Shown here: positions 9,086-62,520 of the stretch, one piece after another
Layout: each line of letters begins with the position of its first letter
Numbering within the stretch: the stretch's first letter is position 1
Sequence record: OQ031495
DNA length: 64,000 nucleotides
Source: Escherichia phage MRostami-2023e
Reading direction: 5' to 3' (one strand)
Notes under the pieces: model-generated
What the model was told of the DNA's origin: nothing
What the model saw: only the letters and a program-made list of their open reading frames with translations
Databases searched by the model: none
Position numbers and translations under genes: made by a program

Positions 9086-9848
<763 letters not shown>

Positions 9849-9856
<8 letters not shown>

Positions 9857-10778
9857 NNNNNNNNNNNNNNNNNNNNNNNNNNNNNNNNNNNNNNNNNNNN
9901 NNNNNNNNNNNNNNNNNNNNNNNNNNNNNNNNNNNNNNNNNNNNNNNNNNNNNNGTAACACCGCCAGGAAGCATCATGCCTTGATGACGTGCTAAAATTT
10001 GGCCATTTAATTCTTTAGCTAAAGCTGTAGCATAGTCTTTAACCCAGCGGTTGTTATATGCGCCTTGTTTAGTTGCAGGATCTTCACCAACTCGACGTCC
10101 GACCAAATTATGGTCCGGATTATCATAACGTTCAGAAATAGACCATGAATCACGAGGACCTACTTGACCGTACCCTACTGTATTTCCTACCATCTTATGG
10201 GTCTCGATATAAGAGCGAACATACGATTCAACGATAATGACATCTTTCTGTCTAAAGTTACCCATTACTTTTAATTGCTCGTTTGCAGAGTTAAACCAAA
10301 AATCTGGAAGAGGAGCAATCATATCTTGAAGCATACCCATATAAGATACTAATTGAGAATAATACCCGAGGTCAGCGCCAAAAGCGTTCGGACCGTAGAA
10401 TTTACCACAATTACTACCCATACCACCTGAAACACCGGCCATTCCTAAAAGGAAATCAGTGAACCATGGATAAGTTGCATTACCATCCATTGAAGTAATA
10501 GAGCCAACGTTTGTTCTTATAATTCTTGTTACAGCAAATACGTTAGAACCACGCATATCAAATACGCCGTGACGGTATTTTTCTTCGTCATCAACAAAAA
10601 ATACATGGAAACCTTTATTCAACCCGTCAAAATGGTATTCGCCATAAAGTTCTAACGCTCGTGAAATACAATCATAAATTTGGTCTGTAGTTAATTCAAC
10701 ATTTACAATAGGAGCGCCTAAACGACGTAATATTACATCTTTTAATTCTTTAGGGTTTTGTGCATTATAACCTGACAT
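9849..10778 (-). CDS. 13: Neck protein gp13 (3' end inside N-masked run; end estimated)
   Basis: N-terminus [30 protein letters not shown]... matches T4 gp13 as recalled. Confidence 0.8.
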
Positions 10779-10810: not shown

Positions 10811-12259
10811 TTAAGCTGTAGGAAGTTCAACCCATGCACCATCTTTGCGAACATAGAATTTACCGTCTGAAGGAGCATCTTCAATATATCCAGCGTCCTT
10901 AAGAGTTTGGATTTCAGCTTCTGCAGCGGCCAAATCAGTTTCAAGAGTAGCAATTCTAGAAGTTAAACCATTAATTGTCGTATCATGACTTTTAACTGTA
11001 GGCAATATACCGCGTTCTTCAACAGTCGAACCATTTGGGTTGGTGCCATTTATAAGAGTATTTAATGTGTTTACAGAACCCTTAATTCCTGTGGAATTAG
11101 TCCCAACATCAGTTTGAATGTTCTGAATGTCATTACTCAGCCCACCGATAGTTCCTTCAAGCTCTCGAGTACGATAAAGCAAAGAGCCGTCTGGTTCCGG
11201 TTTCCCACCTGAAGCGTCAACACCAACTACGTTATTTAACCATGACACATTAAAACGCAATCCTGACGAAGAATCAGAGCCGACAACAGTATTCAATGCT
11301 CCGATAGCATCAGTATTGAGTTTAATACGTCCTTGGATTGTAGTAGGCAAATCATCGGCGCCAATGGCAGTTTCTACTGTAGTCAAACGAGGTTTAATAC
11401 CACCAGATTGATTGAGCTCAAGATTAATGTCGTTTATTGCTGAACTATTCGCATTAGTTGTAGTAATAATAGAAGTCGTATTAGGATACCCAATAGACTG
11501 TTTAATGCCATCCAAGTCAGCATTTTGACGCGACAAAGTTAAATCAATACCGGAAAGACGACTAAACACTGGAGTAGTGAAAGAAGTGCGAGGCCCCATT
11601 TCTTCGCGCAAGTGTTCAACTTCAACAGTTAAAGAGCCGACGTCAGAATCAGCAAATTTAGTTTCCAAATCAGTTAATCGAACACCGTGGTCAACAATTA
11701 CGGAGCTATTAGTCATAATACGGCGTTTCATACCAGTGCTATCATTTCCTGGAGTAGGAACCCCATTAATATCTTGACCGGTATATTGTCCTAATTCATT
11801 TTTAATCCAAAGCAGGTCGTTACGAACCGTTCTATAAACTGAATCTGTTTCCTGATTATAAACACCAATATCGTCAGTATTCGCATCAATATGTTCATTC
11901 AAATCATTCAATTCACTGGCATGGGTTTGAACTGTGACTTTAATGACATCGATATCTTGGGTGTTCTGGCCTATCTGTGCAAGAGCATCAACATCCCCAG
12001 AAACATCTAAAATACCTTGAATAGCTTTGATATCTTCATTGGCCGTATTCAAAGAAGATGCTATAGTTTTAATATTAACATCTAACGCTTCTACGTTACG
12101 TTGAACTTCAACAATAGGACGGTTCATTACACCTTCAGAACCGTATTTTGTGTCAGCACCTGTTATTTCTTCATCGTTTTTAATCCATTCAATACGACTC
12201 TGACCCGCGTCTGGTGGGCCGTCAACATATGGTAAATCTACCAGAGTTATATCAGTCAT
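10811..12259 (-). CDS. wac: Fibritin (whisker antigen control)
   Basis: 482 aa; C-terminal foldon-like GYIEDAPSDGKFYVRKDGAWVELPTA. Confidence 0.9.
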   Translation of the reverse strand: MTDITLVDLPYVDGPPDAGQSRIEWIKNDEEITGADTKYGSEGVMNRPIVEVQRNVEALDVNIKTIASSLNTANEDIKAIQGILDVSGDVDALAQIGQNTQDIDVIKVTVQTHASELNDLNEHIDANTDDIGVYNQETDSVYRTVRNDLLWIKNELGQYTGQDINGVPTPGNDSTGMKRRIMTNSSVIVDHGVRLTDLETKFADSDVGSLTVEVEHLREEMGPRTSFTTPVFSRLSGIDLTLSRQNADLDGIKQSIGYPNTTSIITTTNANSSAINDINLELNQSGGIKPRLTTVETAIGADDLPTTIQGRIKLNTDAIGALNTVVGSDSSSGLRFNVSWLNNVVGVDASGGKPEPDGSLLYRTRELEGTIGGLSNDIQNIQTDVGTNSTGIKGSVNTLNTLINGTNPNGSTVEERGILPTVKSHDTTINGLTSRIATLETDLAAAEAEIQTLKDAGYIEDAPSDGKFYVRKDGAWVELPTA

Positions 12260-13929
12260 TATTTTACCTTAATGATATAGTTTAAAGAAATATTCCATGG
12301 GCGAGTTTCATTTCCAATTAATTCTGGACGATTCAGGGTATATTTAGAGTTACGCTGAGACGCTGGATCAATTTCATATCCATCGTTAGTAAAATACGAA
12401 CGGTTATCTTCTGGACGATTCAGGGTATATTTAGAGTTACGCTGAGACGCTGGATCAATTTCATATCCATCGTTAGTAAAATACGAACGGTTATCCCAGT
12501 CAAGTCCTTTACGAGTACCAACAAAGTTTGAACGACGAGTATTACCGAATGCTCCTGCATCGTCATGTTCACCAAAACCGCCAGCATGCTTATGATATGA
12601 CATCTGTTGTTTTTGCACCTCACCAACATATCCACCGGTACAACCTACCGCCAGACGAGGCTTACCGAATTGGTCATTACCATTAACATTAGGGTTAGTT
12701 AAATGGTTACCACGACCTGAGCCGCGAACAAATAATCCACGCATATCGGGCAAGCCTGGGTTAGAAGAACTACCACCATATCGTGTCCCAATTCTGGAAG
12801 CATATACCGGACATTCTGAAGCAGAAACGGTCCCACCGTGACAGAAACGCCAGTCCGAACTCGGCAAACTATCTGCAGCCCACATTGTAATAGCGCCAAC
12901 TGGAAGAATTCGGTCTAATTCATTTTGAGTCACAATACGATTGCCTTGAATATAACCACCGGTCATATTGACATTACCCGTTATATTAGCACCACCAGAA
13001 CCAACCGTCAACGTATTATTAATGCGAAGCGTGCCATTAATAGTTTGACCGCCTCGTTGGTGGATAACATCAGCATTCCAAGCAAGGGCAGAAGAACCAT
13101 CACCACCTGATTGGCTACCCGCTTGTGTAGTTAAACGAACAACTCCACGTAAAGAAGTTGTAGCCCCACGCCCGTTTAATGTTGCGCCGGTCACTACAAC
13201 TGAAGAGTTGTTACTATTTACTTCAGTCTGTGTCCCTAGTTTAACGACACCTTTATTAGTTTCTGATGCTACTGAATTCATAAAGGTATAAGGTGAAATT
13301 GCATAGCCTTCACGCAGGGTGCCTTGTTGTGCTTGTGCAACTGTAGCTAAACGAACAACACCTGTAATAGATTCGGTGGCGTCACTATTATTTGGAGCAA
13401 TTTGTGAAATAAGTTTAATTGCTAATTGTTGTGTTTTTAACGGGGTCATCGCCGTTGTATCGTCAGAACCAGCTAATGCCGCAGCAGAAGTTGAAATTTT
13501 AATTACACCATTTGTTGCTTCTGTTGATACTTTTGTCTGGAATACATTGTCTATTTTTTGATTCAATTTAAGCGGAGTAATTGATGCATCGTCAATAGCT
13601 CCGGCTACTGCTTCATCTTCAGTAGCATAACGAGTTAAACCATATTGAGTTTCGGTTGCATTAGGATATTGTAGACGAGCATTCAGTGATGCCGGAGTAA
13701 CAGCTTTACTATTATCTAATCCATCAATAACTTCTTGTGGAGTGGCTATTTGAATAATTCCAGGTGTAGTAGTTGTTGCTTCCGGGACGCCGTTAACACC
13801 TGAAGGAGAAATAGCAGCTAATGCGGCTTGGACATTAGTGACTGTATCTGGAAAATTCGACCCAGTAGGGTCGAATTCAACGTAAATAGATTCATTTGAA
13901 ACGTGTTGGTATGTATTGTTATTACTCAT
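12259..13929 (-). CDS. 12: Short tail fibre protein gp12 (carries an in-frame 29-aa tandem duplication)
   Basis: 556 aa vs T4 527 aa; C-terminus ...[19 protein letters not shown] as in T4 gp12. Confidence 0.9.
12322..12495 (-). repeat. Perfect 87-bp tandem direct duplication (2 copies) inside gene 12
   Basis: 12322-12408 identical to 12409-12495; encodes [29 protein letters not shown] twice. Confidence 0.9.
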
Positions 13930-30109: not shown

Positions 30110-30397
30110 ATGAAAACATATCAAGAATTTATNNNNNNNNNNNNNNNNNNNNNNNNNNNNNNNNNNNNNNNNNNNNNNNNNNNNNNNNNNNNNNNNNNNN
30201 NNNNNNNNNNNNNNNNNNNNNNNNNNNNNNNNNNNNNNNNNNNNNNNNNNAAAGGTACTGTTTACCTAGGTGATGGGTGGTCTGCTAAAAAGGATGGTGC
30301 TACAATCGTTATCTCTCCTGCCGAAGAAACTGCGTTGTTTAAAGCTAAACACATTTCTGCAGCACATCTCAAGATTATTGCTAAAAATCTTTTGTAA
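30110..30397 (+). CDS. ipI: Internal protein I (capsid-targeted, injected; interior masked by N)
   Basis: Starts MKTYQEF (capsid-targeting sequence); C-terminal part KGTVYLGDGWSAKKDGATIVISPAEETALFKA... as T4 IPI from memory. Confidence 0.75.
   Translation: MKTYQEFXXXXXXXXXXXXXXXXXXXXXXXXXXXXXXXXXXXXXXXXKGTVYLGDGWSAKKDGATIVISPAEETALFKAKHISAAHLKIIAKNLL
30133..30250. other. N-masked run (118 nt) inside ipI
   Basis: run of n. Confidence 1.
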
Positions 30398-30457
30398 NNN
30401 NNNNNNNNNNNNNNNNNNNNNNNNNNNNNNNNNNNNNNNNNNNNNNNNNNNNNNNNN
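30398..30457. other. N-masked run (60 nt)
   Basis: run of n. Confidence 1.
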
Positions 30458-33798: not shown

Positions 33799-33827
33799 NN
33801 NNNNNNNNNNNNNNNNNNNNNNNNNNN
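33799..33827. other. N-masked run (29 nt)
   Basis: run of n. Confidence 1.
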
Positions 33828-38466: not shown

Positions 38467-38728
38467 NNNNNNNNNNNNNNNNNNNNNNNNNNNNNNNNNN
38501 NNNNNNNNNNNNNNNNNNNNNNNNNNNNNNNNNNNNNNNNNNNNNNNNNNNNNNNNNNNNNNNNNNNNNNNNNNNNNNNNNNNNNNNNNNNNNNNNNNNN
38601 NNNNNNNNNNNNNNNNNNNNNNNNNNNNNNNNNNNNNNNNNNNNNNNNNNNNNNNNNNNNNNNNNNNNNNNNNNNNNNNNNNNNNNNNNNNNNNNNNNNN
38701 NNNNNNNNNNNNNNNNNNNNNNNNNNNN
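38467..38728. other. N-masked run (262 nt), flanked on both sides by gtttaca promoter elements
   Basis: run of n. Confidence 1.
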
Positions 38729-42411: not shown

Positions 42412-42729
42412 ATGAAAACATATAAAGAATTTATCGCCGAATCTGCTGCAGGACAACGTGTAGAAGGTGGTTATATCTGGATTGAACAAGTTGAGCCGCC
42501 AAGTCGCACTTCTACAGGTAAATGGAAAATCACTGTTGATGGTCCTGGTGGTAAACGTAGGACTCTTAAAGAAATTAATGGGTACTATGAAGAAGCTCTT
42601 TCTGACGCGGGTACTTATATGATGCAAATCATGATTAAAAACCCAGAAAATCGTTTTGCGGCTAGAGTTTTCCGCCGTATTGGAAATAAGCTTTATGATG
42701 CATATTCTAAAAACTTCCCTAAAGAATAA
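42412..42729 (+). CDS. Internal-protein-like gene with capsid-targeting sequence (MKTYKEFIAE)
   Basis: 105 aa; CTS N-terminus; own promoter. Confidence 0.65.
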   Translation: MKTYKEFIAESAAGQRVEGGYIWIEQVEPPSRTSTGKWKITVDGPGGKRRTLKEINGYYEEALSDAGTYMMQIMIKNPENRFAARVFRRIGNKLYDAYSKNFPKE

Positions 42730-42777: not shown

Positions 42778-43217
42778 NNNNNNNNNNNNNNNNNNNNNNN
42801 NNNNNNNNNNNNNNNNNNNNNNNNNNNNNNNNNNNNNNNNNNNNNNNNNNNNNNNNNNNNNNNNNNNNNNNNNNNNNNNNNNNNNNNNNNNNNNNNNNNN
42901 NNNNNNNNNNNNNNNNNNNNNNNNNNNNNNNNNNNNNNNNNNNNNNNNNNNNNNNNNNNNNNNNNNNNNNNNNNNNNNNNNNNNNNNNNNNNNNNNNNNN
43001 NNNNNNNNNNNNNNNNNNNNNNNNNNNNNNNNNNNNNNNNNNNNNNNNNNNNNNNNNNNNNNNNNNNNNNNNNNNNNNNNNNNNNNNNNNNNNNNNNNNN
43101 NNNNNNNNNNNNNNNNNNNNNNNNNNNNNNNNNNNNNNNNNNNNNNNNNNNNNNNNNNNNNNNNNNNNNNNNNNNNNNNNNNNNNNNNNNNNNNNNNNNN
43201 NNNNNNNNNNNNNNNNN
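42778..43217. other. N-masked run (440 nt)
   Basis: run of n. Confidence 1.
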
Positions 43218-45080: not shown

Positions 45081-45282
45081 NNNNNNNNNNNNNNNNNNNN
45101 NNNNNNNNNNNNNNNNNNNNNNNNNNNNNNNNNNNNNNNNNNNNNNNNNNNNNNNNNNNNNNNNNNNNNNNNNNNNNNNNNNNNNNNNNNNNNNNNNNNN
45201 NNNNNNNNNNNNNNNNNNNNNNNNNNNNNNNNNNNNNNNNNNNNNNNNNNNNNNNNNNNNNNNNNNNNNNNNNNNNNNNNNN
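45081..45282. other. N-masked run (202 nt); an ATG at 45075 opens a masked gene
   Basis: run of n. Confidence 1.
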
Positions 45283-47154: not shown

Positions 47155-47416
47155 NNNNNNNNNNNNNNNNNNNNNNNNNNNNNNNNNNNNNNNNNNNNNN
47201 NNNNNNNNNNNNNNNNNNNNNNNNNNNNNNNNNNNNNNNNNNNNNNNNNNNNNNNNNNNNNNNNNNNNNNNNNNNNNNNNNNNNNNNNNNNNNNNNNNNN
47301 NNNNNNNNNNNNNNNNNNNNNNNNNNNNNNNNNNNNNNNNNNNNNNNNNNNNNNNNNNNNNNNNNNNNNNNNNNNNNNNNNNNNNNNNNNNNNNNNNNNN
47401 NNNNNNNNNNNNNNNN
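47155..47416. other. N-masked run (262 nt)
   Basis: run of n. Confidence 1.
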
Positions 47417-47560: not shown

Positions 47561-47568
47561 NNNNNNNN
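47561..47568. other. N-masked run (8 nt)
   Basis: run of n. Confidence 1.
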
Positions 47569-49288: not shown

Positions 49289-49628
49289 NNNNNNNNNNNN
49301 NNNNNNNNNNNNNNNNNNNNNNNNNNNNNNNNNNNNNNNNNNNNNNNNNNNNNNNNNNNNNNNNNNNNNNNNNNNNNNNNNNNNNNNNNNNNNNNNNNNN
49401 NNNNNNNNNNNNNNNNNNNNNNNNNNNNNNNNNNNNNNNNNNNNNNNNNNNNNNNNNNNNNNNNNNNNNNNNNNNNNNNNNNNNNNNNNNNNNNNNNNNN
49501 NNNNNNNNNNNNNNNNNNNNNNNNNNNNNNNNNNNNNNNNNNNNNNNNNNNNNNNNNNNNNNNNNNNNNNNNNNNNNNNNNNNNNNNNNNNNNNNNNNNN
49601 NNNNNNNNNNNNNNNNNNNNNNNNNNNN
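49289..49628. other. N-masked run (340 nt)
   Basis: run of n. Confidence 1.
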
Positions 49629-55549: not shown

Positions 55550-56485
55550 ATGGCTTTTATTACACGTAAAGAACTTATCAAAGAATTTACCTCGAACGCA
55601 TATACTCCAGGACCTAATCCTATCCGTATGCCTGTAAAGACTCCTGAAGAGATTGAGGAAGTCTGTTCATATTATGGGATTACTTCTCGTAAGTTTACTC
55701 AATTTGAATGCGTTACTAACACACCCGTTAAAGAGTTCATTAAAAATGGTGAGTTCAGCCGTTTATTAGCCAAACAGAAACTTCGTAATTTTTGTATTGG
55801 CGGTGAAGGACAATATTTCGCTAAGCAGTTCCGGAATAACCTTAACAATCTGATGGCCATTGCTTCTCGTATTCGTCCTCAAGCAATTAACATGAAACAT
55901 TTGAAATATACTTACGATAAGTTGGAAATCATGGTTATCAGTGAGAATGAGTTCACTCTTACGTATAAACCTAAGAATGATAACGTTGCTCGTGTATTTC
56001 ACCAAGCGTTGGAAGTTTTAGGTGATAATATCCACCAGATTAAAGCAATTTATTCACGTGAGCTTAATATTATCAACCCCATCAAGAATAAGGGTCATAT
56101 TGCTATCCAGGCTCGTGTATCTATTGGTAAAAAGGTTCCTGCGCCATGGTGGCACAAAGACTCTGAATACTATCAAAATCTTAAAAAGGAAAATGCATTG
56201 TTTGAAGCATCGCTTACTGGAACCCCAATTGAACAGGCCGAAGTCCTAAGTGCTTATTCTACTTCTNNNNNNNNNNNNNNNNNNNNNNNNNNNAAACTAA
56301 AAGTTTCTAATGACCTTCTTCCGGCCGAAGATTACCATTACAATCAAATCAAGGCCACTATGGACCAACTGTCTGTTGAACTTGACAAAGCACAAGCTAA
56401 GCTTCGTGATGCTCAAAGTGTTGTAACGAATCTCCAGTTGCAGTATTCTAAACTTTTTAACGCAATGAATGCATTAAAATCATAA
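55550..56485 (+). CDS. Hypothetical protein with C-terminal coiled coil (311 aa; 27 nt masked)
   Basis: ORF track. Confidence 0.6.
   Translation: MAFITRKELIKEFTSNAYTPGPNPIRMPVKTPEEIEEVCSYYGITSRKFTQFECVTNTPVKEFIKNGEFSRLLAKQKLRNFCIGGEGQYFAKQFRNNLNNLMAIASRIRPQAINMKHLKYTYDKLEIMVISENEFTLTYKPKNDNVARVFHQALEVLGDNIHQIKAIYSRELNIINPIKNKGHIAIQARVSIGKKVPAPWWHKDSEYYQNLKKENALFEASLTGTPIEQAEVLSAYSTSXXXXXXXXXKLKVSNDLLPAEDYHYNQIKATMDQLSVELDKAQAKLRDAQSVVTNLQLQYSKLFNAMNALKS
56267..56293. other. N-masked run (27 nt)
   Basis: run of n. Confidence 1.
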
Positions 56486-59539: not shown

Positions 59540-59724
59540 NNNNNNNNNNNNNNNNNNNNNNNNNNNNNNNNNNNNNNNNNNNNNNNNNNNNNNNNNNNNN
59601 NNNNNNNNNNNNNNNNNNNNNNNNNNNNNNNNNNNNNNNNNNNNNNNNNNNNNNNNNNNNNNNNNNNNNNNNNNNNNNNNNNNNNNNNNNNNNNNNNNNN
59701 NNNNNNNNNNNNNNNNNNNNNNNN
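59540..59724. other. N-masked run (185 nt) flanked by identical 9-mers ttaagttaa
   Basis: run of n. Confidence 1.
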
Positions 59725-60242: not shown

Positions 60243-62056
60243 AAATTGAAAAAGAAATTGAAGGATTAATTCATAAAACTAATAAAGACCTTTTAAACGA
60301 GAATGCTAATAAAGATTCTCGTGTTTTTCCAACTCAACGGGACCTTATGGCTGGTATTGTGTCTAAGCACATTGCCAAAAATATGGTCCCGTCTTTTATT
60401 ATGAATGCGCATGAAAGCGGAATCATTCACATGCATGATATTGATTATTCTCCTGCTCTTCCATTTACTAATTGCTGTTTAGTCGATTTAAAGGGGATGC
60501 TTGAGAATGGATTTAAATTAGGCAATGCTCAAATTGAAACGCCTAAATCTATTGGCGTTGCTACTGCAATTATGGCACAAATTACCGCACAAGTTGCTTC
60601 ACACCAATATGGCGGAACTACATTTGCGAATGTCGATAAAGTTCTTTCTCCTTATGTTAAACGCACATACGCTAAACATATTGAGGACGCAGAAAAATGG
60701 CAAATCGCTGATGCGTTGAATTATGCCCAATCTAAAACAGAAAAAGACGTATACGATGCATTCCAAGCTTATGAATATGAAGTAAATACTCTCTTTAGTT
60801 CAAACGGACAGACTCCTTTTGTAACAATTACATTTGGTACAGGAACCGACTGGACTGAACGAATGATTCAGAAAGCAATTCTTAAAAACCGCATTAAAGG
60901 CCTTGGTCGTGATGGAATAACTCCTATTTTCCCTAAGCTTGTTATGTTCGTTGAAGAAGGTGTTAATCTTTATAAAGACGATCCGAACTATGATATTAAG
61001 CAGCTTGCTTTAGAATGTGCAAGCAAAAGAATGTATCCTGACATCATTTCGGCTAAGAACAATAAAGCTATCACCGGCTCATCTATTCCTGTTTCTCCAA
61101 TGGGTTGCCGTAGTTTCTTGAGCGTATGGAAAGATTCAACTGGCAATGAAATTCTTGATGGACGCAATAATCTTGGCGTTGTAACACTGAATCTTCCTCG
61201 TATTGCGTTAGATTCTTATATTGGAACACAATTCAATGAACAGAAATTTGCCGAATTGTTCAATGAACGAATGGACCTGTGTTTTGAAGCTTTGATGTGT
61301 AGAATTAGTTCCTTAAAAGGAGTTAAAGCGACTGTTGCTCCTATTCTTTACCAAGAAGGTGCATTTGGGGTTCGTCTTAAACCTGACGACGATATAATTG
61401 AGTTATTTAAAAACGGTAGAAGTTCAGTGTCTTTAGGATACATCGGTATTCATGAATTGAATATTCTTGTCGGCCGTGATATTGGACAAGAAATTTTAAC
61501 TAAAATGAATGCTCATCTTAAACAGTGGACTGAAAGAACCGGTTTTGCTTTTAGCTTGTATTCTACTCCTGCTGAAAACCTGTGCTATCGCTTCTGTAAA
61601 CTTGATACTGAAAAATATGGAAGTGTAAAAGATGTTACTGATAAAGGCTGGTACACTAACAGTTTCCATGTTTCAGTAGAAGAAAATATTACTCCGTTTG
61701 AAAAGATTTATCGCGAAGCCCCATATCATTTCATTTCGNNNNNNNNNNNNNNNNNNNNNNNNNNNNNNNNNNNNNNNNNNNNNNNNNNNNNNNNNNNNNN
61801 NNNNNNNNNNNNNNNNNNNNNNNNNNNNNNNNNNNNNNNNNNNNNNNNNNNNNNNNNNNNNNNNNNNNNNNNNNNNNNNNNNNNNNNNNNNNNNNNNNNN
61901 NNNNNNNNNNNATTTGTTTGTTCTATGTGTGGAGAAACTGATCCTAAAAAGATGAACACAATAAGAAGAACGTGTGGTTATCTTGGAAACCCGAACGAAC
62001 GCGGATTTAATCTAGGCAAAAATAAAGAAATCATGCATAGGGTTAAACACCAATGA
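60239..62056 (+). CDS. nrdD: Anaerobic ribonucleotide reductase NrdD (uninterrupted; 173 nt masked)
   Basis: 605 aa; C-terminal glycyl-radical motif RRTCGYLGNP. Confidence 0.9.
   Translation: MKIEKEIEGLIHKTNKDLLNENANKDSRVFPTQRDLMAGIVSKHIAKNMVPSFIMNAHESGIIHMHDIDYSPALPFTNCCLVDLKGMLENGFKLGNAQIETPKSIGVATAIMAQITAQVASHQYGGTTFANVDKVLSPYVKRTYAKHIEDAEKWQIADALNYAQSKTEKDVYDAFQAYEYEVNTLFSSNGQTPFVTITFGTGTDWTERMIQKAILKNRIKGLGRDGITPIFPKLVMFVEEGVNLYKDDPNYDIKQLALECASKRMYPDIISAKNNKAITGSSIPVSPMGCRSFLSVWKDSTGNEILDGRNNLGVVTLNLPRIALDSYIGTQFNEQKFAELFNERMDLCFEALMCRISSLKGVKATVAPILYQEGAFGVRLKPDDDIIELFKNGRSSVSLGYIGIHELNILVGRDIGQEILTKMNAHLKQWTERTGFAFSLYSTPAENLCYRFCKLDTEKYGSVKDVTDKGWYTNSFHVSVEENITPFEKIYREAPYHFISXXXXXXXXXXXXXXXXXXXXXXXXXXXXXXXXXXXXXXXXXXXXXXXXXXXXXXXXXXFVCSMCGETDPKKMNTIRRTCGYLGNPNERGFNLGKNKEIMHRVKHQ
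61739..61911. other. N-masked run (173 nt) inside nrdD
   Basis: run of n. Confidence 1.
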
Positions 62057-62520
62057 ATTATGATAGAATTTATCCTTGTGATTTTGTGAATGGCCCTGGT
62101 TGCAGGGTCGTTCTTTTCGTTACAGGTTGTTTGCATAAATGTGAAGGGTGTTATAATAAATCAACATGGAATGCTAGAAATGGTATTCCATTCACTGGTG
62201 AAACACTAAAACAATTAATTGAAATTTTGAATAATGATTAAATAGAAGGATTAACTATAACTGGAGGAGACCCTCTCTATCCTGATAACCGAGATGTTAT
62301 TCATTGCATTGTTCAAACTATTAAAAATCTTTATCCCAATAAAAGCATTTGGTTGTGGACAGGATATAAGTTTGAAGATATTAAACAACTAGAAATGCTT
62401 AAATATGTTGATGTTATTATTGATGGGAAGTATGAGAAAAATCTTCCGACCAAAAAGATATGGCGAGGATCAGATAATCAGCGACTTTGGTCAAATACCG
62501 ATGGGGTGTGGAAACATGAT
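62053..62520 (+). pseudogene. nrdG: Anaerobic RNR activase NrdG interrupted by in-frame TAA at 62239-62241
   Basis: N-terminal 62 aa with CxxxCxxC-type cluster motif (CLHKCEGC) then TAA; downstream same-frame sequence IEGLTITGGDPLYP...RGSDNQRLWSNTDGVWKHD continues the NrdG homology. Confidence 0.75.

Follow-up and report, generated by a model that had tools for sequence, protein, structure and literature searches.

For phage T4, several structures of the short tail fibre protein gp12 are available (PDB 1H6W, 1OCY, 1PDI and 5IV5). The head of gp12 is a 'knitted' trimeric zinc-binding domain whose folding needs gp57A, and the motif SYHKHAGG of the T4 protein holds the zinc-site residues His445 and His447 (PMC3004832). 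T4 gp12, like every solved structure, contains the stretch from residue 478 to residue 506 in one copy. In phage vB_EQ1 (PQ516281.1, genome of 167,790 nt) the corresponding 87-nt unit is also present once and gp12 has 527 aa (XPQ48300.1). In phage vB_EcoM_JS09 (KF582788.2 and its RefSeq twin NC_024124.2, 169,148 nt) gp12 has 557 aa (AIA79960.2, YP_009037335.2) and the unit is doubled. A doubled unit is also found in vB_EcoM_TU01 (MZ560701.1, 169,046 nt), which was deposited as a 'partial genome'. Here we analysed a stretch of 64,000 nt of Escherichia phage MRostami-2023e (OQ031495), referred to below as the window, in which gp12 as written has 556 aa, against 527 aa in its relatives, an excess of 29 aa. 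At NCBI, the 556-aa gp12 of the window is present in one record of 169,098 nt, a length near that of JS09 and unlike that of EQ1.

The gp12 ORF of the window runs from 12259 to 13929 on the minus strand. Its product contains the three Pfam domains that are also found in T4 gp12, all with scores that exceed the curated cut-offs (PF09089 gp12-short_mid, 133.8 bits; PF07484 Collar, 52.6 bits; PF14928 S_tail_recep_bd, 252.6 bits). A phmmer comparison with the T4 gp12 chains gave a full-length match (E = 2.3e-293 for 5iv5_O). The ORF is flanked by baseplate wedge gene 11 and the fibritin gene (wac), as judged from the order of the window ORFs and from the annotations of JS09, TU01 and EQ1. Domains, homology to T4 gp12 and neighbouring genes together bear out an earlier note on this DNA, made from the letters alone, in which the gene had been named short tail fibre gene 12.

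Direct comparison of positions 12322-12408 and 12409-12495 showed two identical, adjacent blocks of 87 nt. Tandem Repeats Finder reported the repeat with a period of 87, 2.0 copies, 100% matches and a score of 348, and it was the only tandem repeat with a score of at least 80 within the 64-kb window. Block identity and Tandem Repeats Finder thus confirmed the perfect 87-bp in-frame tandem duplication that the earlier note had described at 12322-12495; its figures of 29 aa for the unit and of 556 versus 527 aa for gp12 were also correct, as seen from the ORF and from EQ1 gp12. A chance origin of an exact adjacent repeat of 87 nt in DNA of 36.5% G + C is excluded. The copy that comes first in the protein is the one at 12409-12495 on the minus strand (gp12 residues 479-507), which corresponds to T4 residues 478-506 with one substitution. 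An identical copy follows it in the protein and is encoded at 12322-12408 on the minus strand (residues 508-536). The copies meet at 12408/12409, where the plus strand reads ...CGGTTATC followed by TTCTGGAC... and the coding strand ...AACCGTCCAGAA followed by GATAACCGTTCG...; the 30-mer across this junction is ACGAACGGTTATCTTCTGGACGATTCAGGG. A single Trp codon abuts the repeat at 12496-12498 on the minus strand (CCA on the plus strand), where JS09 has CCACCA (WW). No microhomology was found at the repeat ends, with 0 nt of identity beyond either boundary. Short homology at the end points is common for genuine tandem duplications, though not obligatory.

The sequence SYHKHAGG of the window protein aligned with the identical sequence of T4 gp12, so that the His-x-His zinc site is conserved. 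The repeat unit lies downstream of this site, within the receptor-binding domain. PF14928 matched one stretch (residues 434-526) of the single-copy EQ1 protein and two stretches of the 556-aa protein, which therefore does not show the one uninterrupted receptor-binding domain of a gp12 of about 527 aa. The C-terminal receptor-binding region is indeed where the repeat is located, as the earlier note had it; the split of PF14928, however, places it inside the receptor-binding domain and not upstream of it. An insertion of 29 residues per chain inside the knitted head has no structural precedent: the unit occurs once in T4 gp12 and in all solved structures, and twice in the window gp12 as written. 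We attribute the split PF14928 match and the length of 556 aa to the artefact described below rather than to the protein.

The best match of window positions 1-25000 was EQ1, the nearest relative with a de novo assembly, at 100.0% identity over a span of 25,000 minus 87 bases. Outside runs of Ns, positions 1-30132 are 100% identical to EQ1 apart from the added 87 nt; over about 60 kb in all, 22 substitutions separate the window from EQ1. Within gp12 every aligned base is identical between the two, and the difference lies in the single copy of the unit in EQ1.

The bases of the window are EQ1-like and its coordinate frame is that of JS09. The frame could be read from 13 runs of Ns, at 9804-9954 (151 nt), 30133-30250 (118 nt), 30398-30457 (60 nt), 33799-33827 (29 nt; 217 nt in EQ1), 38467-38728 (262 nt; -7 nt in EQ1), 42778-43217 (440 nt), 45081-45282 (202 nt; 282 nt in EQ1), 47155-47416 (262 nt), 47561-47568 (8 nt), 49289-49628 (340 nt; 72 nt in EQ1), 56267-56293 (27 nt; 51 nt in EQ1), 59540-59724 (185 nt; -9 nt in EQ1) and 61739-61911 (173 nt). 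Measured from the flanks, all 13 runs have the length of the JS09 segment. The EQ1 length fits in one of the eight cases that could be measured and is different in the other seven. The JS09 segment that corresponds to 38467-38728 carries gene JS09_048, which is absent from EQ1. The offset between window and JS09 is constant across every run, and the 62 indels that separate the two sequences are small, the largest being 10 nt. Every one of the larger length differences between EQ1 and JS09 appears as Ns in the window.

Between the runs there are islands of 144-147 nt whose aligned parts reach no more than 77-92% identity to JS09; these are therefore derived from reads and are not reference fill. 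The 144-nt island that precedes the run at 47561-47568 is too short for a de novo contig. The 3-nt difference at the Trp codon next to the repeat is small enough to be called by read mapping, so that the bases near the repeat come from reads as well. EQ1-like bases in JS09 coordinates are the signature of a consensus made by mapping reads onto JS09. Structural features of the window larger than about 10 nt, such as gene presence or absence, lengths and repeats, reflect JS09 and not the sampled phage.

The 151 Ns of the first run fall within the ORF of the neck protein gp13 (9786-10778, minus strand) and are translated as 51 X. EQ1 and JS09 are of equal length at this position and the flanks are about 90% identical. 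The run represents a mapping dropout caused by local divergence within an essential gene.

Mapping was simulated with reads of 100, 150 and 250 nt (150 nt in the main run), which were tiled from single-copy EQ1, placed on JS09 by best local alignment and converted to a pileup consensus. With reads of 150 and 250 nt, the simulated gp12 consensus was 1671 nt long and base-for-base identical to window positions 12259-13929, with both repeat copies present and the extra TGG of JS09 gone. The two copies were kept at all three read lengths; the 100-nt reads gave two copies but not the exact gp12 string. Coverage at 12408/12409 dropped from 50 to about 9 and never reached zero. Under the lenient setting, coverage fell to zero in 11 intervals, each of which overlapped N-runs of the window, and all 13 N-runs were accounted for. 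Six boundaries of simulated dropouts and N-runs were identical to the base, among them the start of the run at 30133-30250 and the end of the run at 42778-43217. The whole simulated consensus measured 63,973-63,994 nt, against 64,000 nt for the window, and had 20 mismatches over about 60 kb with the 150- and 250-nt reads. Mapping reads of the EQ1 type onto JS09 suffices to yield the gp12 of the window exactly.

We consider it very probable that the gp12 duplication in the window is an artefact of reference bias, inherited from JS09. Short reads of a phage close to EQ1, with a single-copy gp12, would have been mapped onto JS09, and a consensus would have been called position by position in JS09 coordinates. 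Reads from the single copy would align locally to either copy of the reference with their far end clipped, which would give coverage on both copies. No read would force the call of an 87-nt deletion, and the covered positions would stay, leaving two perfect copies in the consensus. Small differences, including the extra TGG of JS09 beside the repeat, would be corrected from the reads, and JS09 segments too divergent in the sample or missing from it would attract no reads and end up as Ns of JS09 length. The literature on reference bias in consensus genomes yielded general accounts only. The known effect is the same in kind, in that features of the reference beyond the indel reach of the aligner persist and unmapped segments become Ns of reference length; the present instance is a standard example of it, situated in a gene where the effect looks biologically meaningful.

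Because a consensus in the JS09 frame carries both copies whatever the sample held, it is uninformative on copy number either way, and the window cannot serve as evidence that the sampled phage has a duplication. From the near-identity to EQ1 and the rarity of the duplication, both read from sequence comparison, we infer that the sampled phage probably has a single copy. The earlier note had left the choice between a recent event and an assembly artefact. An artefact it appears to be, in the form of a consensus on the duplication-bearing JS09 and not of a mis-join in an assembly of the sample's own reads. The change in receptor binding or host range that had been suggested for the window phage is left unsupported by the single-copy EQ1 and the JS09-frame consensus.

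The distribution of the duplication was examined in a collection of 50,697 phage records. A search with the gp12 gene matched 288 records, 105 of them at an identity of at least 90%, and nearly all of these 105 gave a two-piece match spanning 1584 nt, which equals a single copy and a protein of 527 aa. A query of 80 nt across the copy/copy boundary was matched over its full length only in JS09 (both the GenBank record and its RefSeq twin) and TU01 among the phage records. In the other phage records this query split into two halves of 40 nt that fell on one 87-nt unit. The comparison with gp12 of related phages, which the earlier note had proposed as a check, thus found the relatives to be single-copy and the junction limited to JS09 and TU01 among 105 close records. 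The junction 30-mer was not found in IMG/VR, JGI metagenomes, GTDB genomes or complete E. coli assemblies, but such scans have low power, since those collections contain few sequences of this gp12 allele; in a control for the scans, the allele was present on 1 IMG/VR contig. A 73-aa query covering the double unit, which is too short for the word index, matched no protein in a collection of 5.8 billion, so that even single-copy gp12 was missed.

Like the window, TU01 is a consensus written in the JS09 frame, duplication included. It comes from another sample, with a gp12 of about 97% identity to that of the window, and differs from the window in having kept the extra TGG of JS09, in showing single-base Ns instead of N-runs and in lacking indels relative to JS09. 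The gene coordinates of TU01 equal those of JS09 over at least 112 kb, and 0 indels were found in 49,001 nt at a divergence of 1.7%. The ambiguous bases of TU01 are at third codon positions, and one of them is at the same position of the unit in both repeat copies, as expected if both copies are fed by one pool of reads. Although a CLC assembly was described for TU01 (PMC9117343), the record is a JS09-frame consensus and a second case of the same artefact. The TU01 record, whose reads are deposited under BioProject PRJNA383466, contains 92 short N-runs at polymorphic sites; Ns scattered over third codon positions suggest that the sample was a mixture of phages. Of the three genomes with the duplication, only JS09 counts as an independent observation.

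It is improbable that the sampled phage truly has the duplication seen in JS09, inherited from a common ancestor or acquired by recombination with a JS09-like phage, and that the consensus happens to be right. The deposited JS09 genome does show the identical unit with identical boundaries, and T-even phages are well known to swap tail-fibre segments. However, EQ1, which is essentially the same phage and 100% identical over the 30 kb around the gene, has one copy, and in a set of about 100 close relatives two copies are limited to a single independent genome (one independent record in 105). That the region was covered by reads, since the TGG difference was called, fits a true duplication; the same missing TGG means that a recombination tract would have to start exactly at the repeat boundary, and the window gp12 is EQ1-like at all sites that distinguish JS09 from EQ1 by substitution. 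A true duplication in the sample is unlikely on these grounds. For a recent event in the window phage, the single copy in EQ1 and a frame that gives two copies regardless leave no support.

Even less likely is that the Ns are masks, applied later to a complete genome collinear with JS09, in which case the duplication would be real in that genome. While some sequence collections are said to hold masked stretches, the N-runs here sit where EQ1-type reads fail on JS09, with six boundaries exact. Their flanks are 100% EQ1-like up to the Ns and their lengths are JS09-like, incompatible with EQ1 in seven of eight cases. Arbitrary masking would not track the structural differences between EQ1 and JS09.

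We regard it as highly improbable that the same 87-nt duplication arose a second time by replication slippage or illegitimate recombination, as at a mutational hotspot. Tandem duplications do arise in T4-like phages and the unit is in frame, but without microhomology nothing directs a second event to the same boundaries. A third occurrence was absent from the phage, IMG/VR, JGI metagenome, GTDB and E. coli collections, and the JS09 frame accounts for the identity of the boundaries without a second event. Equally improbable is a mis-join in a de novo assembly of the window itself, from untrimmed overlapping contig ends and unrelated to JS09: perfect tandem repeats without microhomology are typical of untrimmed contig overlaps, but such an error would not reproduce the JS09 boundaries, and N-runs of JS09 length, together with indels that are all at most 10 nt, show that the window was not assembled de novo. 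A pipeline that aligns de novo contigs to JS09, which would keep a real duplication and remove a false one, is made less likely by the islands of 144-147 nt between the N-runs and by the 10-nt ceiling on indels.

With reference bias as the preferred reading for the window, JS09 is left as the sole record in which a JS09 frame does not account for the duplication. Its gp12 has the 87-nt unit doubled with the same boundaries, identical copies and the same neighbour genes as the window. It differs by an extra Trp codon before the first copy (LDWWDNRS) and by about 10 substitutions elsewhere, the identity to the window being 99.3%. In the head domain there is one Asp-to-Gly change (EHGD in JS09 in place of EHDD). 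Whether the duplication is real in JS09 is a judgement rather than a measurement, and we lean slightly towards doubting it. Bearing on this question are the perfect copy, the lack of homology at the junction, the in-frame WW alongside, its uniqueness among the relatives and its place in a tightly intertwined domain. In the 68 kb of JS09 that were examined there was no other strong tandem repeat, which speaks neither for nor against an artefact in JS09. The gp12 and fibritin protein accessions of JS09 are at version 2, and the region was revised after its first release. A later paper of the JS09 group mentions only a 'conserved receptor-binding domain' and no duplication (mSphere, PMC8546717). 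The CF01/SW01 paper, in which JS09 and TU01 are cited, has no connection with the window. A real duplication in JS09 would be of moderate interest as an example of how much structural change gp12 can tolerate.

Taken at face value, the duplication in the window would look like an alteration of an essential adhesin with relevance for host range, and it could spread through protein databases. NCBI already has the 556-aa protein, which should not serve as evidence of gp12 variation. Tracing the duplication to the reference removes a false lead, and the window and TU01 are not independent evidence. Other findings on the window, beyond gp12, should be re-read with the JS09 frame in mind. If the sampled phage did have the duplication after all, a viable T4-like phage would tolerate a large insertion in a fold regarded as topologically tight, the insertion might be exploited for LPS recognition, and the allele would have moved between Mosigvirus lineages.

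Some further differences from EQ1 were seen outside gp12. The window differs from EQ1 by 22 substitutions, 20 of which are clustered at 60680-61105 (about 430 nt, in nrdD); in 17 of the 22 the window has the JS09 base. The cluster is either a patch of different ancestry, acquired by recombination, or a spot where the consensus was swayed by the reference. Positions 61345-62464 (about 1.1 kb), which hold the 3' part of nrdD and the start of nrdG according to the JS09 annotation, are without a counterpart in the 'complete genome' of EQ1, the ends of whose record fall inside nrdD. Either this sequence was lost at contig ends during assembly or EQ1 has a real deletion. One window ORF encodes a protein of 178 aa of which no exact record was present in the collection. 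Another ORF, at 42412-42729 (plus strand, 105 aa), adjoins the lysozyme and denV genes, is missing from EQ1 and differs from JS09. Identical copies of the 105-aa protein are common among other T4-like phages, with listings in 98 blocks of the collection. The position is a mosaic locus, which shows that the sample is distinct from EQ1 itself.
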